Positions 4,120-40,159 are shown, counted from the first letter of the stretch. The stretch: 61,659 nt of DNA from an uncultured Thermoplasmatales archaeon (GCA_964389625.1 CAYMEF010000002.1:1-61659), one strand, 5' to 3'. Translations and numbers: made by a program. The notes: generated by a model from the sequence alone, not told the origin.

Positions 4120-7100
4120 CTAAGATTTTCTCTTTGTCTTTGATACCATAACAGCAACCAGAGCTAACACTATTGCAACAACAGCTACAATCACGATAAT
4201 GTACAGAACATGAATCGGAGCAGGCGTTGGCTGTTTACTGAGGGCTATTTTTAGAACAGAGAGTGATGTTTGGTTTGATGCGACGGTGACGTTGTGATAG
4301 TATGTCTTGTACCCAGGCGAGACCACCTTAATGTCATAACTCCCTGGTTGAACCGAAATATTGAAGTTTCCATTTACGGTCGTTATTGCTTGTCCGTTCA
4401 CGTAGAGTGCTGCATTGGTCGGAGTTATTGTGCCCGTCAGATATAGATGTGCCTGGACTGCTGAGAACTGAATAGACTGGTTTAACGCAAACCCTTCCAC
4501 GTTTATGATGCCCGCTTGGGGAGATACGTTGTAATTTGACGAGGAGTTCACAGAGAATGAGTAAGTGCCATTCAGCTCTTCGAACGATATAGTGGACGAA
4601 TTGGATGTCATAGATATCCCCGCCAGCGTGACGGTCCATGTCGATCCAGCCGGAAGATTGGACTCAATGAAATTCACCTGGAACAGTTCCGAAAAAGTCA
4701 CTGATTTTGTAACGGATGAACCGCTTACGGTGATGACTCCAGATGTTGGAGAAACTTCGTATCCGGTAACGTTTGAGATCTTGTATGTATAAGAGCCGTT
4801 GGTCTCTGGAAATGTAATGCTGGACTGGGTGGATGAAATCGTATTAGCACCAAGGGTCACAGACCACGATGTGCCAGAGCGCAGACCTGTCTGAGAGAAC
4901 GTGACTTCGTACCCGAGGACTTCAGAAAATGATATGAATTCGTTTACCGGTGATCCTCTGATAGTTATGGATCCCGTCTGAGGACTGATCGAGAATCCGT
5001 TCACGCTAGCAACAACGAATGTAAATGTCCCATTTGGTTCTGAAAATTCGAGATTGCTTGTCCTGGAGGAAAGCACTGTACTTGGTCCTCCATAGGGTGA
5101 AACTACCTGGACCCCGCCAGCGAGGAGATTGGAGACGTAGATGTTGTGATCTGTGGGATTGTAAGTAGGAAACAGCGGATATCCCGTCAACGCGATATTA
5201 GCAACAAGAGTATTTGTCAGCGAACTTATCACTGACAGAGAACTGGAATTTTCTTCAGCAACGTAGATGTAATGGTCGTAGGCGTTGTAGGTAATGCCAA
5301 TGGGGGAAGAATGGGCTGGCAGGGCTATAGTAGTAACGACTTTGTTTGTCGATCCGTCAATTACGAGGATGGAATCCAGGGTCTTGTCTGTGAAGTAAAG
5401 GTACCCGTTAAGAGGGTCATATACTCCAAAGTAAGCCGCACCATGTATCGTGTCTATAAGTTTTTCAGTATTGCTGCTTATGACGAAAACAGAGTCCGCC
5501 AGGGTAAGGTTGTTGAAACCTCCTATATACACGTTCCCGTTTGAGGGATCGAATACCGCTCCCGTTGCTGTTTCCCCATTTGCTCCGAGCGTAATGGTTG
5601 TCAGGATCGAGTTGGAGGTACCGTTAATAACAGATACTGAACCAGATATCGAGTTAGCTACATAGATGTTGTGGTTTGTGGAAGAGTAGGCAATTCCAAC
5701 CGGCTGTGTACCAACCGGTATCGTTGCAATAACTGTCTCTGTCGCAGTATTAATTACAGAAACGTTGTTTGAAAGAGAGTTGACAACATACACGTAACCA
5801 TTGTATGGGTCATACACGCTCGCCTCCGGAAAAGATCCAACTGATATAGAGGCGATTATCGAATCCGTCAACGGACTGATCACGAGAACGACTCCAGGGT
5901 ACTTGGTCGAGGGAGTTGAGTTGTGAAGAATCCCGGAAGCATATAGGTATCTGTTCGAGCTGTCGTAAGTTATTCCATATACATCAACATTGATCGAAGT
6001 CGTGTTGATCTGCCCTATTACCCTACCAGCATTAGTGGAGTTTGTAAGCGACACGGTCCACTGCGAGTTTGAGGAGAGCCCGGATTCTGTAAACGTGAGG
6101 TTGTATTTCGTAACAGGCACCATCACCTCAAATGAAACGTTCACGCTCTTTGGCGCTCCATTAATTGTCAAAAGACCTGCAGACGGCTTAGAGGTGAATC
6201 CTGTAGCATTTATTTCATAAGTATAAGTCCCATTTGGTTCCTGGATCACTATCGACGAGCGTATGGATGTTTCCGTTGAGTTAGAAATAGTAACAGACCA
6301 TGAGGAGCCCGTTGGAAGTCCGGTTTCATCGAATGCTATTGAATAAGTCTTCACAGCTTGAGTGAAAATCACGTTAACGGAAATATCTTTCCCCGCAACA
6401 AGCAAGGTCCCATTGTTTGGGGTAGAAGTGTAACCCGAAGCTACCATAGAGTAATGGTATGTACCGTTGGGTTCATTAATTTGAATGGTAGAATTAGATG
6501 AAAAACTGTAGGTTCCGTTCAGGGAAACATACCACAGGGTAGCCGAAGAGAGTCCGGTCTCAATGAATTTAATAGTGTAACTAGCTGCAATCGCAATCGG
6601 CACACTTCGAGCGTAACCAGAAACAGAGAATGACGAAGTGTTGGTCAAATGTGATGTAGTAGTTATGGTATAGTTGTAAGATCCGTTAGGAAGATAGGCG
6701 ACCATAGTTGCAAACGAGGAGGAATTTGAATACTCTAAAGAAAAGTTAGAATCATCTGCTGTCAAGGACCAGGTGTTTGAAGCTTTCAAACCCGTAATGG
6801 AAAAGGTCACTTGGTAGAGGTCCGGAAACTGATACACTTTGTTCTGTTCAGTTCCAGTTACGACGAATGTTGAGGAAGACGGATAGAAATAAGAATTAGA
6901 CTCCTCCACTGAATAAAAAAAGGAACCGTTTATAAGATAGGCTGTCACGCTCGAATAGGTAGATGAAGTATTGTAGTAAACCTCTGAGAAACCCGTTGAG
7001 GATGTAGTAGAGTAAACTCCTATTCCCCACATCAGTCCTGACTTCAGATTCGACTCTTCAAAGTTGACTGGCGTTAACTTAGGGAAGGCCACTGTAATGT

Positions 7101-8646: not shown

Positions 8647-8942
8647 TATAAAGGATATTTTGTTGAATATTTAAGTTTGACCAAACTCGCATTTAAAAAC
8701 CCTAACTCGCTATTATTTAGGTAATATGTTAAGGTCCAGCAATTCCTTGAAAGTTGAGTAGGAGTTCCAAAATTGACTGAAAACTCGCGCACCTTTGCCT
8801 TATGTCTTAATTACGAATAATTAGGATGAAATCTCTGTTTCTGGAGAATCAGTCTAATACTTGGTGGAAATTGATTTTAATTAGACCTAATTCAGACTCA
8901 TTTGATATAAATGTTTTAATACCCTCTGGCATTGAGTGTTGA
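8647..8942. promoter_or_regulatory. AT-rich divergent promoter region between the 1508-aa and 3492-aa surface genes
   Basis: 'gatataaatg' at 8904-8913 lies ~30 nt upstream of the TTG start at 8943. 'aatatttaag' at 8666-8675 (reverse complement 'cttaaatatt') lies ~20-29 nt upstream of the minus-strand ATG at 8646. Both fit archaeal TATA spacing with short or no leader. Confidence 0.45.
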
Positions 8943-11900
8943 TTGAATAATAAAAAGGTTGCCAGGGGGATGGCATTGAGTGTAGCACTAGCAATAGTGC
9001 TCTTGATGCTTTCTTCGTCATTTTCCGGTGCTTTATATCCATCAAACCCAACTAATCCTGCGCAGCCCCAGGGGAGTCACGTCTACCTGGTCACTTCGAC
9101 AATAGGAAACCAAAATTATAGCTATTATGAAGAGGTTCAAAACGGGAAGGTTGTGAAAACCTGGCCGTCACCTGCCGCTCCTACCGTTCTCAATAACTCG
9201 GGTTCAAGTCCTTCTCAGATGGCGAATTCTTCGCCTTCAATAGAACCTTCGAGTGAGAAAAACACTAGCCAAAGCCTAAGTTCTTTGTCGATTGCTAACA
9301 AAACAGAGCTGAATGGACCTAGGTCTTTTGATGGAGACAAAGGTGGAGGTAGCGGAAATACATTCAACATTACTCAGACATATTCCCTTACGTCTATCAC
9401 ATTGTCCCCTACCTCTTCAAATCTTTACGTCGGGCAAACGTTGAATCTCGTTGGTACTTGGGCCGGAGGACTATCTCCTTATAACTATATCTGGCAGGTC
9501 TCTCGGACTTCATCCGACCACTGGCTCTTCACTTCTTACAACAACTCTTCTAATAAATATTCTGCAAACTTAAATTTCACTCCCGACCATCCCGGAACGT
9601 ACTTGATAAACTTAACGGTTAACGGTACGGGCAAAGGAAATGGGCTATATGCATATTCTGTCATCTCCGTTCAACCACAACCCTCCACGAATACCGATAA
9701 CAACCAGTTTAGTTTGGACAATGTTACCTTGAACCCTACCACCTCGGTGATGTATTCCGGTAGTCCAATCGATTTCGTAGGGAAATGGAGGGGTAGTTCA
9801 AGTGCATACAACTACGCATGGGTTATTACCACTGATCCGACACAATGGAAATCCTACTATGAAGGAGAAACCAACCAAATAGATAATTTCAATACGACAA
9901 CTGGGACTTCAACTGGCTTCAGTTTCAATCCAGTATACGGTTCGTTTGGTGTTTTTTACCTCTACCTATATGTGACTCCATCCAATGGGAAATTGGCCGG
10001 ACCTGGTAATCAACAGGATTCATTGGTTGCTTTCACGCAGATCATTCTACTCCCCGGTACGCCCGGAGTGACTTCTGTTACCATCTCGCCCACTTCGATT
10101 AATTACAACAATGACTCTGGACTCCTAACGTTCAAGGGAAACTGGACCGGTGGGGCTCCACCCTATTCTTATGCTTGGTTTGTGACCTATCGCGATACGA
10201 TAAAAACCCCATACATCCTTCAGTTTAGCTCCTACAACTATACCAATAAGGCTTCCGCAACTTTCACGTATGAGCCCACGAATAGCGGCCAGTACTTTGT
10301 TTATCTCTTCGTCAACAGCGCAACTTCCCCAGCTTACGTAATGGCAGTTTCCCAGATAAATTCTAAGGAAAATCCTCAACCCACCGTACAGCAGATTACG
10401 ATCACCCCAACCACAGTGGACGCAAGCATCGGAGAGTCGGTGACTTTCAATGCTAATTGGACAGGCGGCATTTCCCCGTATACCTATTTGTGGTATGTCT
10501 CTTCTTACTTCCCTCACTGGCAGAAGGGGGCTCACAACTTCAATACGGTAAATACAACGATAACTCCCAATGCTCAGTTTACATATATTCCAGATAGTTA
10601 CGGTATTTTTTACGTGTATTTGTTTGTAAACAATCACGTAAGTCAGAATTCGCAGCCCGGAAGCAACGATGAAGATGAAGGTCTGGCCCTGATTGCCACA
10701 GCCGAATTGAGCGTCCTTCATCCATCCTTACCTCTGACTTCTTCGGCAATTTCGCTTTCTCCCGCCAGCACGACAGTTGGAAATCCCGTGACCGCTACGG
10801 TCGAGTCCGGATATGGCATAGCTCCGTTCAGTTATTCCTGGGCGGTAACAACTTCTGGCCAACCCGCTACCGGAGATTATACAGCTACGGGTGATCAAAT
10901 CACCTTTTCCAGCCCAGGAACGTTTGAAGTTACAGTTACTGTAACAGACTCCAATGGACAAACCGCCTCCCTGACACAAACAATTACTGTGATAGGCCCA
11001 CTGACAGTATCGGTTGCAATATCGGGAAGTAGAACTATAGACAGCGGTCAGTCTGCCACCCTTCTAGCAACATCTATCACAGGGGGTACGTCACCATACA
11101 TTGGTCAGTGGCTGGAGTCGGCTCCCTCGTCCTCAAACTTCATAAACCTAGGTAATCAGTTTTCCGTCACAAGCAGCGATCTCTCAGCGGCAACAATTTC
11201 TAGCGGGATCCTGACTATTACGGGAACGTGGTTGTTCGAACTCAAGATCACTGACACCTCGTATACAGTTGCATATTCTAGTCCGATCTCCATTACAGTT
11301 AACCCACAACTAACCGTTGCACTGTCTGCTTCCAGTACTGGAATCGACTCGGGTGGTTCTGTCACTTTCACGAATTCAACGACCGGCGGGACGCAGCCAT
11401 ACACGTTCGGTTATACGGTCACCCCGGCCACAGGCTGGACTCAATCGAGCAATCCGGGAAACACTTTTACATTTACGGCCGCTGGCACATACAAGGTAAC
11501 GCTTACGGTTACCGATTTTGCGGGTTCCATAGTTTCCTCTTCTACAGTAACCATTACTGTTACATCGCTGCCCACGATCTCGGTTCAACCGCAATCTTAC
11601 TCAATAGACCCAGAACAGGTTTTCAGCCCGCTTACTTCCACTGTTGAATATGGTAGTGGCACCTATACCTGGCAATGGTACTCTGGCTCTCCAGGGAGCG
11701 GTTCAGCCGTTCCTCAAGCTTCTGGAAGCGGTACTTCTGCAACATTTACTCCAACACAGGGTGGTTTATACTATGTTATCTTTACAGACTCGTCAAACCA
11801 GATTGCGACATCCAACGCGGCCGTAGTGAAAGAAAATCAGAACCCGTCCGTTGTCGTTACACCATCTTCGGCTACGATTGTGACGTCACAGCAGTTGCCG

Positions 11901-14900
11901 CTTTCGTCAGCAGTCTCAGGGGGGTCGGGTTCATTCTCCTACTCCTGGACCATCGGAGGAAGTGGGACAGTCGTCGGAACAGCTTCTGGCTACTCGTTCT
12001 CGGAATCAACTTCTGGCACTTATAAAGTCTGGCTGAATGTGACCGATACGGGGACCACTCCTCAGTTTGTAATCACTGCAGTTTCAGTCTCGATAACGGT
12101 AATGACGGCTCCTACAGTTAAAGTGTCTCCTCCGTCAGCCACCATAGACGCATCCCAGTCGATCGTGCTTACTGTCTCGGTTAACGGAGGCTCTGGCACT
12201 TATGTGTACGCCTGGAGCATTGGTGGAAGTCCGACCTCTGTTGGGAGTACTCAATCTTATCAGTTCTCGGAATCAACAGCGAAGACTTACAAGATTTGGC
12301 TGAACGTTACCGACGAAGGAACCAACTTGCCTTATGTTATAACAACGACCGTTTCTATAGTAGTTGATGCATCACCTTCGATTGACGTCGAACCCAACTC
12401 AGCAATAATCGACTCCGGGCAATCGGTTACACTGACATCCACTGTAATCGGTGGTACGGGGCAATTCTCCTGGCAATGGTATGATACATCAGGTGCTATT
12501 TCCGGAGCTTCCGGAAGTGGAACAACTGCTTCTCATTCCTTTTCTACAGCAGATTCGGATATTTACGTCATTTTCACCGATACTGGAACTTCATCCGGAG
12601 CAACTCCAACCTCATCATCGACTTCTTCTCCATACGTTTCTGTAACTGTGGACCCGGCACTTTCAATAGTTGACCAGCCAGTGGCTACTATTATAGATAG
12701 CGGACAATCATTGACTCTCTCTTCGACCGTAACAGGTGGGACGGGATCTTATTCGTGGTCTCTCTACACTTCAAGCAACGCTCTCATCGCTTCGGGAACT
12801 GGTGCAGTTGCGTCAAAGAGTTTCTCACCGACATCAACGGCTTCATATTACTTCGAATTTACTGATACTGGAGTCACATCAAGTGCAACTCCTGCTGCAT
12901 CCATCCAGTCCATTATTGTCCAGGTTACGGTCAATCCAGCCCTGGTTCCCGGAATAACTCCATCTTCTGCCACATTACCGGCAGGGCAATCGCAGCAGTT
13001 CGTTTCTACCACAACGGGAGGTTCTGGGAAGTACACATATTCCTGGACAGTAGGCGGAAGCTCCTCAGTCTTAAGCACAACCAGCACTTTCACCTTCAGT
13101 GAGTCCGTACCAGCGTCATATGTGATCTGGATGAACGTGACTGATACGGGGACTACAGTGCCGTACACGCTTTCTGCCAAGGCAACCGTGCTGGTCAATA
13201 CGGCCACCCTTAGTGTTTCATTTGCGTTCAACACTCCCGCATCTGGGAGTGGTTCGCTCGATGCTGGACAGAGTCTCGGCATTAGTGTCACCCCTATAAT
13301 AAGCGGAGGCACAGGTCCCTACTCTTATCAGTGGTTCCTTAATGGTACTGCAAATGTGAATAAACTTGGTGCATCTAGTTCAGCAACATCAGGGACAGCT
13401 ATAGTATATGCGTTTACTCCGCCCGGAAAGGGTACGTATACTTTCTACCTTCAGATATCCTCCAGCGATGGGCTCGTCTCCATGTCTGGCCCGATCACAA
13501 TCTCAGTTTATGCAAAACCATCAATCTCACAACAACCATCCCCGTCTACGATAGATTCTGGACAGACGGTACAGCTGACATCGACAGTTATAGGAGGAAC
13601 GCCATTATTCTCTTGGACCTTGTATTCCTCCTCTGGAACAGCAGTTGCATCAGGATCGGGGAAGACGGAAACTTATTCGTTCAATCCTCAATCGAACGGC
13701 TCCTACTACTTCGTCTTCACTGATACAGGCGTTGCGTCTGGCTCTAGTCCCACCCCCTCAGCTAAATCCAGCGCTGTTTCAGTAACAGTTTATCCGGATC
13801 CCACTGTAACAGTACTACCTGCAACAATAGGTAGCGGTACAGCTGCTACTCTAACAGCAACAGCAGCAGGTGGCTCGAAGACTGGATATTCTTTCAAGTG
13901 GTATTCCGATCCAGGGTTGACCCATCTTGTTTACAGTGGTGACCCATTTAATACTCCAGTTCTCGCTTCTACCACAACGTACTATGTCACGGTCACGGAT
14001 TCCACGGGATTTGTCAGTTCACCTGCATCAGTCGTAGTGACAGTCGTCGGGAGTCTTACATCATCCTCGCTAACAATCTCTCCTACAACAACTGACGTAG
14101 GCTTTCTGGTAACTGGCTCGGTCTCTCCCGGTTCGGGCGTTTCTCCCTACTCATACAGCTGGGTCATAACCCTTTACCCATCAGGATCTGCATCTGGTGA
14201 CTACACTCCCTCATCCAATCATGTTACCTTTACCAAAGCTGGCGTGTATTCCGCAACGTTGACGGTTAAAGACTCCTCTGGTGAGACAGCAAGCATTACC
14301 GATACGATAACAGTAAATGCACTCCCAACCATTTCCATATCTCCTTCCACGATCACAGTTGACGCGGGAAGTTCAGTAACTTTCACGTACACCAGCAGCG
14401 GAGGTACCTCACCGTATACCTACGGATGGGGTTACTCTGTCGCCTCTGGAATAACCCAGACGGGAAACCAGTTCACATTTGCGAACACGGGCAATTTCAC
14501 TATAAAACTGTTCTTCAACGATTCCGTTGGCGGTAGCGGGTACGCAACAGCCACGGTATCTGTCAACACCCAGCCGGTGATAGTTATTTCCACACTCAAC
14601 GTTACAGTCAGAGCAGCATCATCAATCGATAGTGGCACATCCACTAGTATCGAAATCACAAGTATCAGTGGAACTGGACCATACGTTGCTGTGTTGAAAG
14701 AGGAACCTCCAGGAGAAGGAAGTTATTCGGCGGTTGCAACCACTGCTCAATTTAGTTCAACTCCCGAGTACATTAGCACGGGTATTCTGACTACCATTGG
14801 TCAGTATCACTTTTTGGTTACGGTTACCGAAGTCAGCAATTCGGGGATTTTCGGCAGCTCGCAGCCTATAGTTGTAACTGTTGTAAACGCACCCTCCAGC

Positions 14901-17900
14901 TCCGCCCTGACCATCTCTCCTACTACTACCGATATTGGCCTCCCAATCACTGTCACTGTTGCAAATGGGTATGGAGTTCCCCCATTCGTGTATGCCTGGA
15001 CAGCAACACTCTCCGGAGGTGGGCCTGCGACTGGCGATTATTCGTTCACGAACAATCAGATCACTTTTACCGCAGCAGGAACCTATTCCGTTACAGCGAC
15101 TGTTGAAGATGCTGACGGAATTAGCGTCTCTTCTACTGCTATGGTAATGGTTAACGCGCAACTTGCGCTAACCCTGACTGCGGTTACTCCCACAACCATA
15201 GATAAAGGGCAGACTGTTACATTCTCATACTCGACAACCGGAGGAATGACTCCGTACTCTGTGAGTTATATCGTTTCGTCCATTGGCGGTGGCATAAAAT
15301 TTGGCGCATACTCAATCAGTGGAAACATCATTACTTTCTCCCTGGTCGGACAGTATGAAGTGAGCGCCACGGTAACAGATGCACTAGGGGGCACAGCCAC
15401 ATCATCCTCCCCAATTACTGTTAACGTGAATGCTCTTCCGACGATTACCCTCACTGCATCGGAAACAACTATAGATTCTGGGAACAGTGTTACATTTACC
15501 AATAACACAATGGGCGGGACTCAGCCTTATACTTATATCTGGTCATTCCCGTCCTCAACGGGCATCACCCGGTCTGTCAATACTTTCACATTCGCCAACA
15601 CGGGCAACTTCACAATAACACTCACGATAGTCGACGCGGTCGGAGTGGTCGCCTCTGCATCCGTGCTGATAAGAGTCAACTCATCCCCAATCATAGTGTT
15701 ACAACCAGCCAATTCGTCCAGTCTGCTGGCGTCCTCTAATGAGCAGACTTCTGTGCTATCGGAGCACTCATTCCAACCGCAAAAAAAAACATTAACTGGA
15801 GGCAATGACCCCAAGATTACTCTGGACCAGGACACTCCATGGAGCGTCTATGTTCAGGCGGGAACTGGAACTCCTCCCTTTACATTTAACTGGGCGATAA
15901 AGTACGAGAGCAATAACACTACTCTCAGCAACACCCACTATAACCTGACAAGCAGTAACTCTACATATGTTGATAACGTCGTAAATTTCTTAGTGCAAGG
16001 CACTTTTTATGTGGTCTTGACCGTTGTCGACAAGTATGACTCTACTTCCACGGAATACTTGACGATAGTGGTGGATGCTCCACTTCTCGTTGTTTCAACA
16101 ACGGTGACCGCTACCCCTTCTTCTTTTGATCTGGGAAACAGTACCATGATTGCAGCCACACCGACGATAAGCGGAGGGACCCAGCCCTATTTCTATCAGT
16201 GGTATCTGAACGGTGTATCTTCTGGGAACAAGATATCCGGAGGTTCTGGAACAGCTCTAAGTGGCACTCAGATAACGCTCCCTGAAACGCCTGCAACTGC
16301 AGGTAGCTACACATACTATCTAATTATACATGACAGCGCATATTCTCCTGCTACAAACACCACCAAGGTCACGGTTACAGTTAACAACCTGCTGACGACC
16401 GGCTCGATTGAAATATCACCAACATCCACAGTAATAGATGGGTTGATAAATGCAACAATCAAGTCTGGGTATGGAACTTCTCCCTTCAACTATACCTGGA
16501 CCATCACCCCGATAGGTGGTTCGCCAATCATACAATATGGGCATCAGATCGGGTTGAGCCAGGCAGGGAACTACACAGTCAGTCTAAAGGTCAGGGACGT
16601 AAATGGGAATTTCGCTTACAACAATACGACAGTTAGAATCTATTCATCAAGCCTGGTATTGGTGACAATCAATTCTCCAACATCAACGCAGACAATCGAT
16701 GCCGGCCAGACCCAATCCGTTACCGGCAGTTTCTCCGGAGGCAGCGGGACCTACGAATATGCCTGGATCGTCCAAACTTCAACGACCGCGGTCACTCCTA
16801 GCACTTGGAATACTAGCGCAGTCTCACCCCAGAGTCACACATTTACATTTAATTCCGCCGGTACTTTTTACGTCTTCCTTTATGTCAAGGATACCATTGT
16901 CGGGGACACTCAAAATGCATATCGTGAGGTCAAGGTAAACAACACACTGGCGCAATCTGCGATAACCATCAGTCCCACCTCAACGGATGTAGACAGTCCC
17001 GTCACAGCTTCGGTATCATCTGGGTATGGAACTGCACCCTTCAGTTACTCCTGGAGCGTGTCACTTTACCCCTCTGGTGGATCGGCTGCAGGAGATTACA
17101 ATTCATCGGGGAATCAATTGACGTTCAGCAAGTCTGGGAACTACACAGTCAAAGTAACAGTTAGCGATTCATATACCTCCGCAACTTCTTCAAGCTATAC
17201 CATAGACGTCTCTGTTGTCGTGAGCCTCAGAGCGTCGATTGCCACCTATCCTACCGCCGGAGTGACGGCCATCGACATCAATCACCCCCAGGAATTCCAG
17301 GCAACTGTTGTGGGAGGGAGCGGTTCATATACATATTCATGGGGTCTGAGCGGAACTTCAGGCACGCTGGGCACATCCAGCACCTATACACTCAACGTCT
17401 CTACCCCGGGATTGTATATCGTCTGGCTGAACGTTACTCAGGGCACATACAAGACATCCGCATCTCCACTGACAATCGTGGTCAACCCGCTGCCAAAGGC
17501 CTCCATAGCTAATGGGGGAACCCTACAGGCAGACGTTGGTGAGCCCATTTCGGGTTCAGTGGTTGGTGGAACACCACCATATACTTATTCGTGGTCTGTG
17601 TCTCTGTACCCTTCTAGAAATTCCGCTTCCGGCGATTACACAGTTTCAGGAACTACAATCACATTTAACGCTAAGGGAAACTATTCTTTGGAGTTCATAG
17701 TGAGAGACTACGATGGATCGACCTCTGCGGTTACTGTGACCATAGGAGTAAACGCCGCGTTATCCGGCTCACTTTCACTAATCAATCCACTTTCCTCCGT
17801 GATAGACAGGGGGAATTCGTCACTGTTAACTGTCTCCATTACCGGTGGTTCGGGCAGCTTCTCGTATCAGTGGTATGAGCAGGCCCCAGGAACCAGTTTT

Positions 17901-19421
17901 CCACAACTCATCGTAGGTGCAGTTAATTCAACATATGATTTCGTTACCACACCTGCGACTACTCCCGGGGTCTATCTTTTTAACGCCACAGTCACTGACG
18001 TCAATACTGACCCAGCTGTAGTCAAATCCAACATAATCAGCGTCACTGTACGTTCCACCGTTGTGTATGGGCTTACATTCTCTGAATCTGGTCTTCCCAG
18101 CGGTGCCGTCTGGTATGTTAATCTTACTGCAGGAAAGTCCTATTCTTCTTCAAATTCCAGTATATCACTGTTAGAACCAAACGGGACTTATTCCTACACC
18201 GTTTCAGTGGAAAACAAAACGTTCAAGCTGTCTCAGGCAACAAGTTCTTTCACGGTTACAATCAACGGAACAGCAGTTAGGAAGACGTTCGTGTTCCTTC
18301 CTGTCGTTTACTCCGTCACGTTTCACGAGTATGGACTCATAACTGGAACGGAATGGTTTGTTAATCTAACTGATGGGCAGTCTTACTCTTCTACTCTTTC
18401 CATAATATCTTTCTCTGAAACAAATGGAACCTACACATATACGATTGCGACGGTGAACAAGCAATATAGGCCGACGCAATTTTCCTCCGAGTTTATTGTC
18501 GATGGTAGCTCACTATCGGAACAACCAATCCAGTTCTCACTGCTGAACTATACTGTAACATTTGATGAATCGGGACTTCCAGGCGGGGCAAAATGGTTCG
18601 TGAACCTGTCAAACGGTCAATCATATTCATCTTCAGGTAACGACCTGTCCATCTCTGAACCAAACGGCAGTTACTCTTACACCATAGCCACCCCAAACAA
18701 GATATATTACTCTACTGGGGGGACGCTTGGAGTGAATGGAGCTTCGATCACCGAATACGTCACGTTCTCTCTATATCTCTATAACATCTCATTTACGGAG
18801 ACCGGCCTCTCATCAGGTACCGTTTGGAACATCACCCTCAAAGAAATGAACGGGTTGGTAGCACATTCATCCACTGGACCGATTTACTTTAATGCTGTAA
18901 ACGGCACTTATAATTTCACCATTGGTGGAATACCTGGGTATAGAACTCAGAGCTACAACGTTACTGTAGTTGTTAGAGGTGGAGATATCAAGAATATTGT
19001 TACCTGGACTCCGGTCACGTATCCTGTGACAATAACAGAGAGTGGCCTGGCCCCTGGGTCTAGTTGGTCTGTGGCTCTCACGACTACTTCTTCTACGGGC
19101 CTGGAAAACGTCACTATCCTTAACACAACTTCTGATTCCATCACATTCAACGTTACGAATGGATCGTACTCATACGTTGTCATCCTCCCTAAGGGGTATA
19201 CCGGTTCACCAACAAAGGCAACAATCTCTGTGGTTGGTAGCGGGGTAATCGCTCAGCTAAAGGTTAAGGCTCTACCAAACTACTTACTCATTTGGACAAT
19301 AATAGCTATGATCGCAGTAATGGTAGTGGTTATTGTTATTTATTATATTGGCGAGAAGAAGAGCTTGTTCAAAAGGGATGGTAGGGCTGTAAGTATACGT
19401 CGGGTGAAACAGAAGAAGTGA
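8943..19421 (+). CDS. giant surface protein (3492 aa): signal/TM, S/N-rich linker, ~30 Ig/PKD-like repeats, 5 'VTFxESGLP' modules, C-terminal TM anchor and basic tail
   Basis: Uninterrupted 10.5-kb ORF. TTG start at 8943, or ATG at 8970. The recurrent signature 'GG(T/S)xP(Y/F)xYxW' appears in about 30 repeats. Classical PKD-like ends such as 'TVTDSNGQTASLTQTITV' are present. C-terminal 'LLIWTIIAMIAVMVVVIVIYYIG' is followed by 'EKKSLFKRDGRAVSIRRVKQKK'. Confidence 0.9.
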   Translation: MNNKKVARGMALSVALAIVLLMLSSSFSGALYPSNPTNPAQPQGSHVYLVTSTIGNQNYSYYEEVQNGKVVKTWPSPAAPTVLNNSGSSPSQMANSSPSIEPSSEKNTSQSLSSLSIANKTELNGPRSFDGDKGGGSGNTFNITQTYSLTSITLSPTSSNLYVGQTLNLVGTWAGGLSPYNYIWQVSRTSSDHWLFTSYNNSSNKYSANLNFTPDHPGTYLINLTVNGTGKGNGLYAYSVISVQPQPSTNTDNNQFSLDNVTLNPTTSVMYSGSPIDFVGKWRGSSSAYNYAWVITTDPTQWKSYYEGETNQIDNFNTTTGTSTGFSFNPVYGSFGVFYLYLYVTPSNGKLAGPGNQQDSLVAFTQIILLPGTPGVTSVTISPTSINYNNDSGLLTFKGNWTGGAPPYSYAWFVTYRDTIKTPYILQFSSYNYTNKASATFTYEPTNSGQYFVYLFVNSATSPAYVMAVSQINSKENPQPTVQQITITPTTVDASIGESVTFNANWTGGISPYTYLWYVSSYFPHWQKGAHNFNTVNTTITPNAQFTYIPDSYGIFYVYLFVNNHVSQNSQPGSNDEDEGLALIATAELSVLHPSLPLTSSAISLSPASTTVGNPVTATVESGYGIAPFSYSWAVTTSGQPATGDYTATGDQITFSSPGTFEVTVTVTDSNGQTASLTQTITVIGPLTVSVAISGSRTIDSGQSATLLATSITGGTSPYIGQWLESAPSSSNFINLGNQFSVTSSDLSAATISSGILTITGTWLFELKITDTSYTVAYSSPISITVNPQLTVALSASSTGIDSGGSVTFTNSTTGGTQPYTFGYTVTPATGWTQSSNPGNTFTFTAAGTYKVTLTVTDFAGSIVSSSTVTITVTSLPTISVQPQSYSIDPEQVFSPLTSTVEYGSGTYTWQWYSGSPGSGSAVPQASGSGTSATFTPTQGGLYYVIFTDSSNQIATSNAAVVKENQNPSVVVTPSSATIVTSQQLPLSSAVSGGSGSFSYSWTIGGSGTVVGTASGYSFSESTSGTYKVWLNVTDTGTTPQFVITAVSVSITVMTAPTVKVSPPSATIDASQSIVLTVSVNGGSGTYVYAWSIGGSPTSVGSTQSYQFSESTAKTYKIWLNVTDEGTNLPYVITTTVSIVVDASPSIDVEPNSAIIDSGQSVTLTSTVIGGTGQFSWQWYDTSGAISGASGSGTTASHSFSTADSDIYVIFTDTGTSSGATPTSSSTSSPYVSVTVDPALSIVDQPVATIIDSGQSLTLSSTVTGGTGSYSWSLYTSSNALIASGTGAVASKSFSPTSTASYYFEFTDTGVTSSATPAASIQSIIVQVTVNPALVPGITPSSATLPAGQSQQFVSTTTGGSGKYTYSWTVGGSSSVLSTTSTFTFSESVPASYVIWMNVTDTGTTVPYTLSAKATVLVNTATLSVSFAFNTPASGSGSLDAGQSLGISVTPIISGGTGPYSYQWFLNGTANVNKLGASSSATSGTAIVYAFTPPGKGTYTFYLQISSSDGLVSMSGPITISVYAKPSISQQPSPSTIDSGQTVQLTSTVIGGTPLFSWTLYSSSGTAVASGSGKTETYSFNPQSNGSYYFVFTDTGVASGSSPTPSAKSSAVSVTVYPDPTVTVLPATIGSGTAATLTATAAGGSKTGYSFKWYSDPGLTHLVYSGDPFNTPVLASTTTYYVTVTDSTGFVSSPASVVVTVVGSLTSSSLTISPTTTDVGFLVTGSVSPGSGVSPYSYSWVITLYPSGSASGDYTPSSNHVTFTKAGVYSATLTVKDSSGETASITDTITVNALPTISISPSTITVDAGSSVTFTYTSSGGTSPYTYGWGYSVASGITQTGNQFTFANTGNFTIKLFFNDSVGGSGYATATVSVNTQPVIVISTLNVTVRAASSIDSGTSTSIEITSISGTGPYVAVLKEEPPGEGSYSAVATTAQFSSTPEYISTGILTTIGQYHFLVTVTEVSNSGIFGSSQPIVVTVVNAPSSSALTISPTTTDIGLPITVTVANGYGVPPFVYAWTATLSGGGPATGDYSFTNNQITFTAAGTYSVTATVEDADGISVSSTAMVMVNAQLALTLTAVTPTTIDKGQTVTFSYSTTGGMTPYSVSYIVSSIGGGIKFGAYSISGNIITFSLVGQYEVSATVTDALGGTATSSSPITVNVNALPTITLTASETTIDSGNSVTFTNNTMGGTQPYTYIWSFPSSTGITRSVNTFTFANTGNFTITLTIVDAVGVVASASVLIRVNSSPIIVLQPANSSSLLASSNEQTSVLSEHSFQPQKKTLTGGNDPKITLDQDTPWSVYVQAGTGTPPFTFNWAIKYESNNTTLSNTHYNLTSSNSTYVDNVVNFLVQGTFYVVLTVVDKYDSTSTEYLTIVVDAPLLVVSTTVTATPSSFDLGNSTMIAATPTISGGTQPYFYQWYLNGVSSGNKISGGSGTALSGTQITLPETPATAGSYTYYLIIHDSAYSPATNTTKVTVTVNNLLTTGSIEISPTSTVIDGLINATIKSGYGTSPFNYTWTITPIGGSPIIQYGHQIGLSQAGNYTVSLKVRDVNGNFAYNNTTVRIYSSSLVLVTINSPTSTQTIDAGQTQSVTGSFSGGSGTYEYAWIVQTSTTAVTPSTWNTSAVSPQSHTFTFNSAGTFYVFLYVKDTIVGDTQNAYREVKVNNTLAQSAITISPTSTDVDSPVTASVSSGYGTAPFSYSWSVSLYPSGGSAAGDYNSSGNQLTFSKSGNYTVKVTVSDSYTSATSSSYTIDVSVVVSLRASIATYPTAGVTAIDINHPQEFQATVVGGSGSYTYSWGLSGTSGTLGTSSTYTLNVSTPGLYIVWLNVTQGTYKTSASPLTIVVNPLPKASIANGGTLQADVGEPISGSVVGGTPPYTYSWSVSLYPSRNSASGDYTVSGTTITFNAKGNYSLEFIVRDYDGSTSAVTVTIGVNAALSGSLSLINPLSSVIDRGNSSLLTVSITGGSGSFSYQWYEQAPGTSFPQLIVGAVNSTYDFVTTPATTPGVYLFNATVTDVNTDPAVVKSNIISVTVRSTVVYGLTFSESGLPSGAVWYVNLTAGKSYSSSNSSISLLEPNGTYSYTVSVENKTFKLSQATSSFTVTINGTAVRKTFVFLPVVYSVTFHEYGLITGTEWFVNLTDGQSYSSTLSIISFSETNGTYTYTIATVNKQYRPTQFSSEFIVDGSSLSEQPIQFSLLNYTVTFDESGLPGGAKWFVNLSNGQSYSSSGNDLSISEPNGSYSYTIATPNKIYYSTGGTLGVNGASITEYVTFSLYLYNISFTETGLSSGTVWNITLKEMNGLVAHSSTGPIYFNAVNGTYNFTIGGIPGYRTQSYNVTVVVRGGDIKNIVTWTPVTYPVTITESGLAPGSSWSVALTTTSSTGLENVTILNTTSDSITFNVTNGSYSYVVILPKGYTGSPTKATISVVGSGVIAQLKVKALPNYLLIWTIIAMIAVMVVVIVIYYIGEKKSLFKRDGRAVSIRRVKQKK
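9380..18050 (+). repeat. tandem array of ~30 Ig/PKD-like domain-coding repeats (85-115 codons each, at least 4 interleaved subfamilies)
   Basis: Subfamilies seen by eye: (a) 'GYG(I/V/T)xPFxYxW...GDY...ITF..G.Y..T.TV.D'; (b) 'GGSGx(F/Y)xYxW(T/S)(I/V)GGS...FSES....Y.(I/V)W(L/M)NVTD(T/E)GT'; (c) 'IDSGQ(S/T)(V/L)xLTSTV(I/T)GGT..FSW.(W/L)Y...(V/F)FTDTG(T/V)'; (d) four longer N-terminal units. The repeats are diverged at DNA level. Confidence 0.8.
18058..19265 (+). repeat. five tandem ~80-85-codon 'VTFxExGLPxGxxWxVNLT...EPNGTYxYT' modules
   Basis: 'LTFSESGLPSGAVWYVNLT', 'VTFHEYGLITGTEWFVNLT', 'VTFDESGLPGGAKWFVNLS', 'ISFTETGLSSGTVWNITL', 'VTITESGLAPGSSWSVAL'. Confidence 0.8.
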
Positions 19422-19567
19422 GTTGATTTGATCAATGTTCCCCAATAATCCTGATGTCTGCGTTCCATTAAATACTTTCTTTTTCCTTCCAATACTGAAA
19501 TTCGAACACTCAGATAACTCAATTTACTATGAATCACATAAAATAATTATTAAATACATAAATATAA

Positions 19568-22165
19568 TTGGTTGGTAATGTTATCATGAGAGTGGAACAT
19601 GGTCTGCTGATTGGACAGAAAATTGAGTTGATTGCGCTGCTGGTAGTAGCGCTGGTCTCAATGTCTGCTCTCTCCGGCGGATGCGTTTCATCTTTAATCT
19701 CCTCCCCTGCCATCGTTCCAGCAGATACTGGCGTCAATGTTGCCACTTTTGCAATCCATGATCTTACCATTTTTTCTGTTACTATATCCCCTGTTAATCC
19801 CATTATTGACATAAACCAGTCAGTAACTTTCACTGCAACGGATAGTCAGTCCCTCACTTACACCTACGTCTGGTTCCTGAACAGCAAGGAAGTTGGCTCC
19901 AATTCTTCTACCTATACTTTCACACCAACGTCCACTGGCAGCTATTCTGTATATGTGAATGCCACTTCACAAGGAATTTCAAGGAATTCTAATACAGCAA
20001 GTGCGACAGTGGACAGTACCCCTACGGTCAGCATTTCACCCACCACAAAGAAGATAACAGTTGGACAATCGGTAACTTTCCAATCCAATGTGACCGGAGG
20101 TACGGGGACGTTCAGCTACTTATGGTACCTCAACGGGACGAAGACTTCCGTTACGACATCAACTTATACATTAACCCCAGCTGGAAATGCAACATACTAC
20201 GTCTACTTAATGGTCAATGACACTGGAACAACTTATGGCACACCCACCATATCGGTAAAGTCTAACAACGCCCAGATTACAGCCGTGTTTGTGACTTATC
20301 CTGTGGAATTCTCCGAATCGGGACTCCCAGCTGGGACAAAATGGTACGTGAACCTTACGAATGGACAATCGCGTTCCGTAGTTGGTTCACTCATCCTGTT
20401 TTACGAACCAAACGGAACTTATACCTACACCATTTCCTCAGGAAATAAAGTGTACGCTCCCAGCCCTTCATATGGTACTTTCACAATTTATGGCGACACG
20501 GTATCCTTTACAATCACGTTCCAGCCAGTCACGTATCCAGTCTCTTTCAATGAGACAGGACTCCCCAACGGAACTGTCTGGTATGTAAACGTTTCTGGTC
20601 AACCGTCTCTGCCTTCAGCTCACTCAATAATCACTTCGTCACTTTCGAATGGTAGTTACACTTTTACCATATCTACGGTAAACAAGGAATACTATCCAAC
20701 ACCCTACTCGGGATCTATAAGAGTGAATGGGCACGCTGTGACAGTAAGCGTAGAATTCTCCATATTTACATATCCCGTGGAATTCACAGAAAATGGCCTG
20801 CCAGTGAACACCGAGTGGTTTCTTGCGGTGACGAGCAACACGTCGATCAGTCAATATAATTCATCAGGTTCATCCTTTTCCCAGACAATATCTTTGAGTT
20901 TACCCAACGGGACTTATAATTATTCCATTGTATCTGGGATTGATACATTTGGCCCGTTTCCAGCCAATGGCACCTTCCAAATATCTGGCAATCCCGTCTC
21001 AAAATCCGTTCAGTTCCTAAGATTATATACAGTCACATTTGTTGAAACTGGTCTGCCGATCTCTTCAAGTCCAAATCTCAAATGGTTCTTGAACATAACA
21101 GACCCCCAGTACTACAGCTCTAAGACTAGCACCATATCTTTCTGGGAACCCAATGGAACATATTCATACTCAGTTTCGACAAACGACAGATGGTATGTAC
21201 CTTTCAACTCTACTAGAACTGGCTCATTCACGGTGAATGGTTCTGCAATTACCCCGTTTCCTTCAAGCTCCCCAATAGTGTTCAATGAACTTTTCAACGT
21301 GACGTTCAAGGAGCAGAAGCTTCCCAATGGAAGCCGCTGGTTTGCAAACGTTACTAATGGAGGATCATACTTCTCCACGAACAGTACTATCACTTTTACA
21401 GCTATAAATGGCAGTTACTCATATGAGATCTCGACAGGAAACAAGCTGTACAGGCCATCTCCCTTTAGTGGGATCTTTAATCCAAATCAAACTTCCTTTC
21501 CCATCCTTGTACAATTCAATCTTGTAACCTATCCAGTAACGTTTTCCGAAAAGGGTCTTACGAACGGTACTTTCTGGTCAATAATAATAAACAACATCAC
21601 TCGAATATCTACGAATCAAAGCATTTTTTTCAAACTCAGCAACGGGAGTTACGAATACTCCATTCAGGCACTCTCCGGGTTCTCTACCAGCGAATATATT
21701 GGGAATATTACAGTCAACGGAAGCCCGATCATAGAACCTGTAACCTGGAATCTTGTCACGTACCCAATAAATGTAACTCAGTCGGGTATACCGGCAGGCA
21801 AGAGCTGGTCAGTGACCCTTCAGGGAGAGACATTCAACAAGGTCCCAATTTCGATCACCATAAACACGACAAAGACATTTGTTACGTTCTACGAACCCAA
21901 CGGGACATATAATTATACCATTAATGCTCCATTCGGTTACACTGGCAGTCATGTGGTTGGAAGGGTTGTAGTAAACGGCAAGCCAACCTCAACTGCTGCA
22001 ACACTAGTGCCGCCAAACTTCAAGCTAATCGGAATAATTGGCGTAGTCATAGTTGCAGTTCTTGCTGTCATCCTCTTTCTTATCAACAGGCACGAGAACA
22101 GGAGTTTCTTCGTGAGAGATGGAAGGTACGTTAAGAATGGAAAGTATCTCAAGTACAAGAAATAA
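19568..22165 (+). CDS. surface protein (865 aa): N-terminal signal with Cys-containing 'LSGGC' motif, 2 Ig/PKD-like repeats, 7 'VxFxExGLP' modules, C-terminal TM anchor and basic tail
   Basis: The likely true start is ATG 19586 (MRVEHGLL...), with 'cataaatataa' about 25 nt upstream. 'VEFSESGLPAGTKWYVNLT', 'VSFNETGLPNGTVWYVNVS' and similar modules. C-terminal 'LIGIIGVVIVAVLAVILFLI' is followed by 'NRHENRSFFVRDGRYVKNGKYLKYKK'. Confidence 0.85.
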   Translation: MVGNVIMRVEHGLLIGQKIELIALLVVALVSMSALSGGCVSSLISSPAIVPADTGVNVATFAIHDLTIFSVTISPVNPIIDINQSVTFTATDSQSLTYTYVWFLNSKEVGSNSSTYTFTPTSTGSYSVYVNATSQGISRNSNTASATVDSTPTVSISPTTKKITVGQSVTFQSNVTGGTGTFSYLWYLNGTKTSVTTSTYTLTPAGNATYYVYLMVNDTGTTYGTPTISVKSNNAQITAVFVTYPVEFSESGLPAGTKWYVNLTNGQSRSVVGSLILFYEPNGTYTYTISSGNKVYAPSPSYGTFTIYGDTVSFTITFQPVTYPVSFNETGLPNGTVWYVNVSGQPSLPSAHSIITSSLSNGSYTFTISTVNKEYYPTPYSGSIRVNGHAVTVSVEFSIFTYPVEFTENGLPVNTEWFLAVTSNTSISQYNSSGSSFSQTISLSLPNGTYNYSIVSGIDTFGPFPANGTFQISGNPVSKSVQFLRLYTVTFVETGLPISSSPNLKWFLNITDPQYYSSKTSTISFWEPNGTYSYSVSTNDRWYVPFNSTRTGSFTVNGSAITPFPSSSPIVFNELFNVTFKEQKLPNGSRWFANVTNGGSYFSTNSTITFTAINGSYSYEISTGNKLYRPSPFSGIFNPNQTSFPILVQFNLVTYPVTFSEKGLTNGTFWSIIINNITRISTNQSIFFKLSNGSYEYSIQALSGFSTSEYIGNITVNGSPIIEPVTWNLVTYPINVTQSGIPAGKSWSVTLQGETFNKVPISITINTTKTFVTFYEPNGTYNYTINAPFGYTGSHVVGRVVVNGKPTSTAATLVPPNFKLIGIIGVVIVAVLAVILFLINRHENRSFFVRDGRYVKNGKYLKYKK
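20287..22010 (+). repeat. seven tandem ~80-90-codon 'VxFxExGLP' modules
   Basis: Same module family as at 18058-19265 and in the minus-strand gene 4120-8646. Confidence 0.75.
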
Positions 22166-22205: not shown

Positions 22206-23279
22206 TTACTCTTGGACTTTCTTGAATATTGAACCCGTCTTTAAATCCTTTTCAGACTGAGAAGATACGATACCCTTTGAGGTGATCTTGTAAAAGAATG
22301 GGTATGGGCTGTATGCCCCGCCTCTCATTTTTATGATGGATGCCTTTCTAATACCGGCAGTGGGGTCCTCCATCTCGAGCTTTATTACACCTGACACGAA
22401 ATACTCTTCAATACCATACATGCTGACATCGCTCTTCATAACTGGGCTCGTAACAAGCATATATGTGTGCGGAATTGCAAGTGACATGAAGAACTGATTC
22501 ACGAAATCGTCGTTCTCAACTATCATGGGCGTGATGGGATCTATCGCAATGCGGGTTATATTAGACTCCACGGTTATTCTGTTTATCTCGCTTGAGAGCC
22601 TCGTTATGTACTTCGTCCTGTTCTTCAGATTCTCAAGAACGTCTTCCTTTAGTTCCCTAATCCTATCGGAGAGCTCTATCACTTCAATGGTTCCATCTTT
22701 GTAGTATTCTTCGAATCCAAAGTTGAATGTCTTCGCATTCGCGATGTACTCTGCTCCTCTCGTATCTGTAAGTATGATCGCACCCTTTTCCCCCAACCGA
22801 GCCCCTTGAACGAGGAATTGAGTACAGGTAGTTGTCTTTCCGACTCCCGTCTTACCGGATATCATGTACACATTTCCACGCTTCATCGCACCTCCGAGGG
22901 ATTCGTCAAGTTCCTTTACCCCGAAAACGTCCGATTTCGACTTTGTCTGCTGTCTCTGATCTATCGTGATTATATTGTACATGTGAGTCAGGTTAATTTC
23001 AGTGTCGTCAAGGTCCTTATTTACTACAAGCGCCTTTAGAGATATTCCACAGTCTCCTGCTACCGCATTGAATTTCATTATATCGCTGACAAGATCGTCT
23101 GAAATCCCGTGAAGAACAGCAACCTTTATGTTTTCGTCCCTTTTGGACGTAACGACCAGATCGAACTTGTGTACTGCCCCTGATTTACCAGTAATTTTGA
23201 CATTACTGCCCCACGTGAATTCGCTGTCTAACTCGAACTCTTCCGCTACTTTAGCAACATTAATGGAGTCCACCGTCAT
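22206..23279 (-). CDS. KaiC/RecA-superfamily ATPase with an additional ~105-aa N-terminal domain
   Basis: Walker A 'GKTGVGKTT', a Walker B-like 'GAIILTD', and the KaiC-like C-terminus 'IIKMRGGAY...FYKITSKGI'. The N-terminal 'GKSGAVHKFDLVVTSKRDENIKVAVLHG' is an extra domain. 'gatataaatg' (reverse complement of 23304-23313) lies 25 nt upstream of the ATG. Confidence 0.8.
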   Translation of the reverse strand: MTVDSINVAKVAEEFELDSEFTWGSNVKITGKSGAVHKFDLVVTSKRDENIKVAVLHGISDDLVSDIMKFNAVAGDCGISLKALVVNKDLDDTEINLTHMYNIITIDQRQQTKSKSDVFGVKELDESLGGAMKRGNVYMISGKTGVGKTTTCTQFLVQGARLGEKGAIILTDTRGAEYIANAKTFNFGFEEYYKDGTIEVIELSDRIRELKEDVLENLKNRTKYITRLSSEINRITVESNITRIAIDPITPMIVENDDFVNQFFMSLAIPHTYMLVTSPVMKSDVSMYGIEEYFVSGVIKLEMEDPTAGIRKASIIKMRGGAYSPYPFFYKITSKGIVSSQSEKDLKTGSIFKKVQE

Positions 23280-23446
23280 TACGGATTATGGAGGCCCAAG
23301 GCCCATTTATATCTTTCTCTAAAAGATTTATTCTGCGGTCAATGCAACTAACAATATCTCAAATATATTTTCTATTATATAAAAATATCAATGCTGGTAC
23401 GCTGTTAGTCCTAGGAACTACTAACCAATAATCCTAATTGTGGCGA

Positions 23447-24307: not shown

Positions 24308-24405
24308 TTAAGGGTGAAACGCGTTGGTATTTATTAATTGTTCTTCGAGATACCGTATAACACAAAATCAGTTAAGTATTAATTTCAAAAGAAATTGACT
24401 TTGCG

Positions 24406-25338: not shown

Positions 25339-25607
25339 TCCGCACACTCTAAACTCGACAGAAAAGGATAAGCCAATATACATTCACAGTTTTTATTTTC
25401 CGACGGAGGTAGGTAGAGTCAATTGTAGTATTCCCTTATTATATTTTTATTTTTTAATTAAAACGAGCATATTGCTTACATCATATTATCAGTTAAGATA
25501 CTTTCATTATTTGATATTCTAAAATTCAAAACTTGAAATTTGGCATATCGATATCCGAGTGAAGGATTTAACCTCAGATTCGCTAAGGATTGTGAGAGTT
25601 GTGCAAA

Positions 25608-26075: not shown

Positions 26076-26174
26076 GTTTTTTTGGCCGGTCTTCAAATCT
26101 GGGGAATCTGTCTTATTGCGGGTCTACGATTTTTGAAGAGTAAAACGTTAATTTGGTAAAGAAATACTCATTGG

Positions 26175-40158: not shown

Positions 40159-40159
40159 T

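Follow-up and report, generated by a model that had tools for sequence, protein, structure and literature searches.

The window analysed here is a 61,659-nucleotide stretch of DNA from an uncultured Thermoplasmatales archaeon (GCA_964389625.1 CAYMEF010000002.1:1-61659), and it contains a group of three adjacent genes, here called A, B and C, which encode large, membrane-anchored proteins carrying arrays of the same repeated module. By open reading frame (ORF) calls and translation, gene A (4120..8646, minus strand) encodes 1508 aa, gene B (8943..19421, plus strand) 3492 aa and gene C (19568..22165, plus strand) 865 aa when read from a TTG codon; the coordinates and sizes, with A and B divergent and B and C in tandem, are those of an earlier sequence-only reading of the same DNA. 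The AT-rich intergenic spacer of 296 bp between A and B (8647..8942) carries TATA-like boxes ~25-30 nt upstream of the start codons of both genes, which may serve as promoters. A TATA-like box is also found upstream of an ATG at 19586, and C probably starts at this codon, giving a protein of 859 aa, rather than at the TTG at 19568. Each of the three N-termini has a few charged residues followed by a hydrophobic stretch, and each C-terminus has a hydrophobic helix of 22-24 residues followed by a K/R-rich tail, in keeping with the signal-like N-terminus, single C-terminal transmembrane helix and basic tail that the same reading had ascribed to all three.

A hidden Markov model (HMM) of the module was built from the visible repeat copies and run on the six-frame translation of the whole 61.7-kb window, where it matched only the A, B and C ORFs. 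It found 11 intact copies and one interrupted copy in A (12 altogether), five in B and seven in C, reproducing the total of about 24 that had been counted by eye. The per-copy E-values, from 1e-15 to 1e-25, indicate that the repeats are not due to chance, and the identity of the aligned copies to a reference copy, 26-53%, suggests that the duplications are old. The module is ~78 aa long, and 3,658 copies from the wider family described below share the signature VTFxExGLPxGxxWxV...PNG(T/S)YxY...V.G...V.F, the Trp being conserved in 97% and the Tyr residues in 65-86%. Neither Pfam-A (2025 copy) nor NCBIfam release 20 returned a module match with the whole proteins as queries, or with 23 single copies at E-values up to 10, so the module does lie outside the named families of both collections, the earlier reading having likewise been unable to place it, and the curated HMMs of prealbumin-like families (CnaB, SpaA, CarboxypepD_reg and PEGA) did not reach threshold on it either.

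AlphaFold2 (AF2), run on 23 aligned copies with the first C copy as the modelled sequence, gave an eight-stranded model with a predicted local distance difference test (pLDDT) score of 95.1 and a predicted template-modelling score of 0.80. The top Foldseek matches of this model in the PDB were all prealbumin/transthyretin-like (template-modelling score 0.55-0.64, probability up to 0.99, best E-value 0.04) and included CnaB2 (8BDW), pilin and SdrD domains, the transthyretin-like domain of carboxypeptidase D/N, NOMO1/BOS and the beta-domain of rhamnogalacturonan lyase, while an independent sequence-profile search of the PDB found, at E=1e-4, a SpaA-like domain of the prealbumin fold, the two being matched at a shared lpNGxY hairpin. 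The module is thus predicted to be an eight-stranded prealbumin/transthyretin-like beta-sandwich resembling CnaB, SpaA and CarboxypepD_reg. On this prediction the module forms a sequence family that is new, whereas its fold is one already known; it has no close solved relative.

Several more specific assignments were rejected. No Lys is conserved at any position, in the 23 window copies or in the 3,658 family copies, so there is no Lys-Asn/Asp isopeptide triad and the module is not a CnaB-type isopeptide domain. A divergent PKD domain (PF00801/PF18911) was discarded on an hhalign comparison with the B/C PKD profile (probability 1.4%, E=0.038), and weak cross-matches between module and PKD in iterated HMMs are drift. 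The matches of the InlB B-repeat PF18998 (Flg_new_2) in P0194/P0199, at 356-419 and 574-640, sit in the inter-module gaps at 345-425 and 566-648, and those of DUF7055, DUF1214, NOMO1-like (NOMO1-like_1st) and DUF5979 are sub-threshold fragments of 20-30 residues summed over the repeats in homologues.

Protein A has the most elaborate arrangement of the three, with a signal-like N-terminus, an S/N-rich linker, nine modules, a module interrupted by a propeller, two further modules, a PEGA-like domain, a transmembrane helix and a short basic tail (all on the minus strand). Modules 1-9 (residues 97-848, 6103..8358) match the HMM at E-values of 4e-15 to 9e-23, and in the alignment those nearest the N-terminus diverge most and have the greatest length, at 78-94 aa. 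The tenth copy is split. Its N-terminal part (residues 850-887, 5986..6099), comprising strands beta1-beta3, matches HMM positions 2-33/34 only, and its C-terminal part (residues 1172-1243, 4918..5133; HMM E=2e-12) comprises the PNGT turn and strands beta4-beta8. Between the two lies a seven-bladed YVTN beta-propeller (residues ~888-1171, 5134..5985), identified by TIGR02276 (104.8 bits against a cut-off of 27.85, E=1.6e-30, four repeats), by phmmer against PDB 1L0Q (E=1.4e-31) and by Foldseek, which placed 1L0Q first and YncE next; this segment of A belongs to the YncE-like YVTN propellers of TIGR02276, and A belongs to them here only. AF2, run with an orthologue alignment on the block spanning the propeller, gave a mean pLDDT of 86, with the propeller mostly above 90, and a strand order of three strands, then ~27 strands in seven blades, and then the remaining strands of the module. 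The 406-residue block of split module and propeller is gap-free in 14 of the 15 orthologues, and the propeller thus appears, with good support, to be nested inside one module copy. Modules 11-12 (residues 1248-1398, 4453..4905; E=9e-23 and 4e-21) lie on the membrane side and are followed by a PEGA/CarboxypepD_reg-like beta-sandwich (residues 1407-1461, 4264..4428), where Pfam PF08308 scores 28.0 bits, above its cut-off of 20.8, and PF13620 scores 28.8 bits, below its own; this domain is separate from the shared module. The transmembrane helix (residues 1478-1501), the tail SKTKRKS and the stop codon occupy 4120..4215, as read from the sequence and conserved in orthologues. Full-length orthologues of A, of ~1508-1526 aa, share 48-81% identity and are named 'YVTN family beta-propeller protein' by the Joint Genome Institute (JGI); a genome scan with the whole of protein A returned propeller-level relatives only.

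The match of the A propeller to 1L0Q, a 'surface layer protein' of M. mazei, raises the question of whether the three proteins are S-layer subunits in the strict sense, assembling into a paracrystalline lattice. Surface layers have been seen by cryo-electron microscopy on the plasmas of acid mine drainage (AMD), and putative S-layer genes homologous to those predicted in P. torridus occur in most of these plasmas, including I-plasma (Yelton 2013, PMC3750248). The P. torridus genes of S-layer type have been placed in COG3391 (Golyshina 2016, PMC5155288), and the S-layer or 'surface' proteins predicted for P. torridus and their AMD-plasma homologues (COG3391, arCOG0652, arCOG2560) are, like A, Thermoplasmatales surface proteins with a YVTN propeller. 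The S-layer role in P. torridus was, however, assigned by homology only and is contradicted in Cuniculiplasma, which has such homologues and yet has no S-layer (PMC5155288; PMC12448462), and A is a putative orthologue of these genes at most. Moreover, searches of Pfam, NCBIfam and the PDB showed no similarity to any characterised lattice-forming S-layer protein, each of the three proteins has its own transmembrane anchor, and the three architectures differ widely. A lattice-forming role is, in our judgement, highly improbable.

The nine modules of A beyond the propeller are less easily explained as spacers and speak for a second alternative, in which the module would be a glycan-binding unit, similar to a carbohydrate-binding module (CBM) or a lectin, that cross-links the cell's own glycans or binds exopolysaccharide, the arrays acting as a multivalent glue. 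The Foldseek matches of the module include beta-sandwiches of rhamnogalacturonan lyase, heparinase and a Bacteroides polysaccharide-binding protein, and the strong conservation of Trp and Tyr also speaks for such a unit. Against it, the alignment and the predicted strands appear to place these aromatics on beta-strands in the pattern of core residues. No CBM family rose above noise (CBM_35 reached E=0.046 in one of 23 copies), and tandem prealbumin-like domains in known proteins are usually structural. We therefore regard glycan binding as the function of the module as quite unlikely.

Protein B consists of a signal-like N-terminus, ~150 aa of low complexity, 30 PKD/Ig-like domains, five modules, a transmembrane helix and a 23-aa tail (all on the plus strand). 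The PKD/Ig-like array (residues 151-3028, 9393..18026) was recognised with Pfam (Ig_3 2.6e-25, PKD_4 7.8e-17, PKD 7.4e-13) and resolved into 30 domains by a self-HMM; B is 87% PKD/Ig-like. The five modules (residues 3044-3445, 18072..19277; E 1e-19 to 5e-23) adjoin the anchor; they make up 11.5% of the length of B and form the last 402 residues of its ectodomain. The sequence-only reading had described all three genes as encoding giant proteins built from the shared module, which holds in that all three carry it and is overstated for B, which is mainly a PKD fibre. The transmembrane helix (residues 3447-3469) and the cytoplasmic tail GEKKSLFKRDGRAVSIRRVKQKK occupy 19281..19421 by sequence reading. 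Orthologues of B, at the same position in relatives, have lengths between 3401 and 4600 aa and differ in how many PKD domains they carry, and every B orthologue examined has exactly five modules. The PKD region (10001-18000) also differs in composition, with a G+C content of 0.485-0.489 against 0.42-0.44 in the flanks and a consistently negative GC skew, which is probably due to the Ser/Thr/Gly/Ala-rich repeats and not to a foreign origin.

An array of 30 PKD/Ig-like domains is typical of long fibrillar adhesins, and a varying number of PKD domains above a fixed set of five modules is what would be expected of a binding fibre of variable length. It is therefore possible, if rather doubtful, that the three proteins are primarily adhesins, in which B would use its PKD fibre and A its propeller to bind minerals, biofilm matrix or partner cells such as DPANN episymbionts, and the modules would only supply reach. 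The CnaB-type domains among the Foldseek matches are the stalks of Gram-positive adhesins, and module proteins are attributed also to genomes of Micrarchaeaceae and Nanopusillus (see below). Nevertheless, no ligand-binding domain of known specificity was found, the heads carried by the family are mostly enzymes and propellers and not classical adhesin heads, and the locus is conserved amid housekeeping genes and shows no sign, except in PKD copy number, of the rapid turnover usual among adhesins. Adhesion would in any case overlap with, and not exclude, the interpretation that we prefer, namely that A, B and C are stalk-and-head proteins of the cell surface.

Protein C is the simplest, with a signal-like N-terminus, two PKD-like domains, seven modules, a transmembrane helix and a 26-aa tail (all on the plus strand). 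The PKD-like domains 1-2 (residues 70-227, 19775..20248) match PF16820 at 1.5e-6 and the self-HMM at 7e-18 and 3e-23, and modules 1-7 (residues 246-816, 20303..22015) match the module HMM at 4e-18 to 1e-25. As read from the sequence, the transmembrane helix (residues 818-839) and the conserved cytoplasmic tail NRHENRSFFVRDGRYVKNGKYLKYKK occupy 22019..22165. Orthologues of C, of 858-870 aa, share 51-63% identity. The tails of B and C (19350-19418 and 22085-22162) have in common the motif [RK]S[LF]F.R[ED]G, which is conserved in orthologues (also in L013, L015 and L104). In C the 26-aa tail reads RxENRSFFVR(E/D)GRYVKKGKYLKYKK and hardly varies in I-plasma and in most orthologues (P0278-P0296 except P0294), the tails of P0294 and P0297-P0300 diverging after 'RS'. 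That the tail should be nearly invariant though the ectodomains are only 51-63% identical suggests a binding partner in the cytoplasm.

All three proteins are rich in N-glycosylation sequons. Their density per 100 aa is 3.3 in A, 2.0 in B and 4.5 in C against 0.78 in the 28 other ORFs of the window, an enrichment of ~3-6 fold, and the counts also exceed those of composition-preserving shuffles (50 vs 31+/-5 in A, 71 vs 54+/-6 in B and 39 vs 17+/-3 in C), so that the earlier description of the module as saturated with sequons stands up to both comparisons. The sequons are densest in the module parts, at 3.9-5.4 per 100 aa; there are ~3 in each module, and an N-G-S/T sequon lies at the beta4-beta5 turn in 82% of the 3,658 module copies. 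N-glycosylation of membrane proteins has been established experimentally in T. acidophilum (Vinogradov 2012, as cited in PMC11407970). A and B contain no cysteine and C contains one, within its signal-like N-terminal region; K+R and D+E each account for only 3-5% of the residues of the three proteins, and the module itself has almost no charged residues and no cysteine. This low charge and near absence of cysteine fit an ectodomain exposed to strong acid.

The module is far more widespread than a first search indicated. A word-indexed search with a short module profile found only nine fragments, one of them named 'thermopsin precursor', whereas an exhaustive HMMER scan of 1.84 billion cluster representatives (50% identity) found matches with E<=1e-3 in at least 7,308 protein clusters, 2,792 of them with E<=1e-30. 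The longest array found is that of P0010, a metagenomic protein of 3552 aa which consists almost wholly of 43-44 consecutive modules. In GTDB, one genome per species was scanned with one narrow peptide pattern taken from a six-copy subset of the alignment; 208 of 214 matches were genuine module loci, and among the 80 loci listed nearly all belonged to the class Thermoplasmata, including Thermoplasmatales (I-plasma, Cuniculiplasma) and Sysuiplasmataceae, single metagenome-assembled genomes (MAGs) often having many loci. As the pattern was a single narrow one, the true taxonomic range could be wider. The module-array proteins P0317, P0333 and P0337 are attributed by NCBI to MAGs of Candidatus Micrarchaeaceae and Nanopusillus acidilobi, which could reflect horizontal transfer or mis-binning. 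These DPANN episymbionts occur in the same habitats as Thermoplasmatales, with which Micrarchaeota also have hosts in common.

Within the family the array usually has the same position. In a set of 267 module proteins, each 400 aa or longer, the median distance from the end of the last module to the C-terminus is 63 residues, and 183 of the 267 have a C-terminal hydrophobic stretch; a Cuniculiplasma genome, for instance, encodes a 1415-aa protein with six anchor-proximal modules. The heads at the N-terminal side vary, and include thermopsin (120-417 in P0195; also P0264), phosphoesterase (50-440 in P0089), sedolisin (52-554 in P0242), sedolisin/pro-kumamolisin (P0071) and YVTN, NHL or lactonase propellers. 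The thermopsin catalytic domain PF05317 has no match in A, B or C; the module proteins in which it was found, P0195 and P0264 among them, are all others. There the same array follows a true thermopsin domain, which gives substance to the mention, in the sequence-only reading, of similar repeats in thermopsin-like proteins and explains why fragments of the module come to be called 'thermopsin precursor'. A PGF/PEF motif before the transmembrane helix, as in PGF-CTERM/archaeosortase sorting signals, was present in none of 260 C-termini of A/C homologues and module proteins, nor in the tails of A, B and C. Many module proteins of other Thermoplasmata have GL[PS]..[ED].[YW] (e.g. GLPGYEGYVL) just before the helix, and the B and C families have PN[FY] in its place; these motifs could be lineage-specific sorting or processing signals.

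The locus itself is conserved. On one side A-B-C is flanked by rpS2, Memo and PepX and on the other by a KaiC-like ATPase, Ta1207 genes and GTP cyclohydrolase II, and the order rpS2, Memo, M24-like peptidase, PepX, A, divergent B, C, KaiC-like ATPase, Ta1207 genes, GTP cyclohydrolase II and SDR (short-chain dehydrogenase/reductase) is common to the window and its relatives, matching in Thermoplasmata archaeon FK1.bin53 (JAJYUZ010000001.1), several metagenomic contigs and I-plasma, a published genome that carries the B-C pair (orthologues at ~481-488 kb of ATMD01000001.1). The occurrence of A, B and C orthologues in the same order across several relatives implies that the locus is maintained by selection. 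The sequence-only reading had seen in it a dedicated surface-architecture island, a description that we do not retain: the window contains no genes for glycosylation, secretion or sorting, and the housekeeping flanks and the shared order in relatives point to a conserved cluster of the core chromosome. A mobile or horizontally acquired island was rejected on the same flanks and synteny, together with the absence of tRNA and Rfam features from the window. The source organism is placed in the Thermoplasmatales by the three Ta1207-family genes of the window and by its aminotransferase, which is 80% identical to that of a Thermoplasmatota MAG and 71-72% identical to those of Thermoplasma sp. MAGs and I-plasma.

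Directly beyond C lie a soluble KaiC-like ATPase of 357 aa, convergent with C, and three Ta1207-family paralogues (22206-27098), an order that is kept in every relative examined, where there are two Ta1207 genes. In P0341, a metagenomic protein, a signal peptide, a PKD array, a transmembrane helix and a KaiC-like ATPase are genuinely fused; a Rosetta-stone link between the window's ATPase and PKD proteins through this fusion was considered and set aside as weakly supported, the two ATPases being 19% identical over 47 residues. Elsewhere in the window, an Opp-type solute-binding protein (SBP_bac_5) of 915 aa (46400-49147, minus strand) has an N-terminal PKD domain and no module; with 3.3 sequons per 100 aa it is as rich in them as A-C, and it is probably a further glycoprotein of the cell surface. 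The genes for the Opp permease and ATPase are found at 36624-41377, and peptidase genes (M24-like, S15 PepX, S9, two M20 and S58) are unusually dense, at 1468-3994, 42195-45702 and 49487-52011; together these fit a peptide-scavenging lifestyle, as is described for Cuniculiplasma. A 219-aa protein (31578-32237, plus strand) has 2.7 sequons per 100 aa and, at its C-terminus, a copper-binding motif of plastocyanin/sulfocyanin type; it is probably a blue-copper protein associated with the membrane.

The interpretation that we favour, with a probability of roughly 0.6, is that all three are glycosylated surface proteins of a stalk-and-head type, anchored in the membrane, and that they are candidate components of the exterior protein layer of the Thermoplasmatales. 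Their architecture, predicted fold, family size and spread, array position and conserved synteny were computed directly; export, glycosylation, stalk mechanics and membership of the coat we infer from the sequences, as follows. Each protein would be exported by means of its N-terminal signal sequence and held by the single C-terminal helix, acting as a stop-transfer segment, with the positively charged tail in the cytoplasm and the N-terminus outside. The tandem modules directly above the anchor (five in B, seven in C, and two plus the PEGA-like domain in A) would form a rod-like stalk coated by N-glycans. A beta-sandwich domain spans ~4 nm, and 5-7 modules would thus give a stalk of ~20-30 nm, which would project the 30-PKD fibre in B, the two PKD domains in C and, in A, the module-inserted propeller followed by nine divergent modules. 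Elsewhere in the Thermoplasmata the same stalk would display thermopsin, sedolisin, phosphoesterase and other propellers, and its occurrence under such varied heads suggests a lineage-wide device for display at the cell surface. A dense, disordered exterior protein layer of ~20 nm, whose components were not identified, has been described on Cuniculiplasma and Oxyplasma (Gaines et al. 2025, cryo-tomography; PMC12448462), and proteins of the present kind would be its most plausible building blocks.

Several points weigh against this interpretation. The Foldseek E-values of the module are weak, the best being 0.04 and none reaching 1e-3, so that the fold is assigned at superfamily level only. The insertion of the propeller appears from the split of the HMM match and from predicted secondary structure, and not from three-dimensional contacts. 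Nine of the A modules lie beyond the propeller, from which it follows that the module does more than hold up a head. Instead of being glycosylated, the conserved N-G-S/T may simply form a beta-turn of the structure, as it is aligned with the NG turn of the SpaA-like domain. Fully extended, the 35 domains of B would reach ~140 nm, which far exceeds a coat of 20 nm, and the wall-less state of the source organism is assumed from its order.

The architectural kind to which these proteins belong, namely archaeal, C-terminally anchored, sequon-rich strings of beta-sandwiches, which in some cases also contain a YVTN propeller or PKD domains, is already known. The M. mazei protein 1L0Q resembles A-C in belonging to the archaeal cell surface and in having both a seven-bladed YVTN propeller and PKD domains; in the window, by contrast, the propeller (A) and the PKD arrays (B and C) are on separate proteins, and 1L0Q lacks the 78-aa module within which the A propeller appears to be nested. 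The CnaB/SpaA-type domains of pilins, MSCRAMM proteins and SdrD B-repeats share with the module its predicted beta-sandwich fold and the lpNGxY hairpin and likewise, if our reading of the array is correct, form stalks of tandem repeats on which a functional domain is held away from the cell. The module family differs from them in being anchored by a C-terminal transmembrane helix and not by sortase/LPXTG, in its archaeal and acidophilic lineage, and in the conserved N-glycosylation sequon of the turn. A further likeness is to the thermopsin (A5) and sedolisin (S53) surface proteases of Thermoplasmata, which have the same module in the same anchor-proximal position (thermopsin with 15 modules in P0195, thermopsin with five modules and a transmembrane helix in P0264, and sedolisin with eight modules in P0242). 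Unlike these, A, B and C have no protease domain, and to annotate them as 'thermopsin' would therefore be wrong. Sulfolobus SlaB, the thermopsin-like anchor Saci_1846/M164_1049 and the thermopsin-like surface proteins of Nanobdella share the plan of signal peptide, Ig-like beta-sandwiches, C-terminal transmembrane helix and sequons (PMC12207459; bioRxiv 10.1101/2023.10.27.564410), although SlaB gave no sequence or fold match to the module in the PDB searches, Saci_1846 is likened by plan only, and SlaB/Saci_1846 anchor a crystalline SlaA canopy, which Thermoplasmatales lack. What is new here is a large, uncatalogued module family, in our searches almost only of Thermoplasmata, with a consistent anchor-proximal position and a conserved sequon, along with the apparent nesting of the propeller, the conserved three-gene locus and the tail motif shared by B and C.

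Thermoplasmatales live at pH 0-2 within a single membrane and have no S-layer, and ever since the description of Thermoplasma it has been asked what covers and shields them. One could go further and suppose that module-stalk proteins are the main structural constituents of an exterior layer that replaces the S-layer, that array length sets the thickness of this coat, and that the B and C tails couple it to a cytoplasmic partner, for which the syntenic cluster of KaiC-like ATPase and Ta1207 genes would be a candidate. We consider this extended scheme unlikely; if it were true, the tails would connect coat and cytoplasm of a wall-less cell, either mechanically or for signalling. The module HMM and alignment provide a searchable definition of a family that is, as sampled, almost confined to Thermoplasmata, many of whose members are mis-annotated as 'thermopsin' or left as 'hypothetical', and an acid-stable, cysteine-free display stalk of low charge could serve biotechnology. 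If the proposed role is correct, the module would be the stalk that the class regularly uses, next to the anchor, for its surface enzymes and binding proteins, and the composition of the coat becomes testable in Cuniculiplasma, which is in culture and carries the module.

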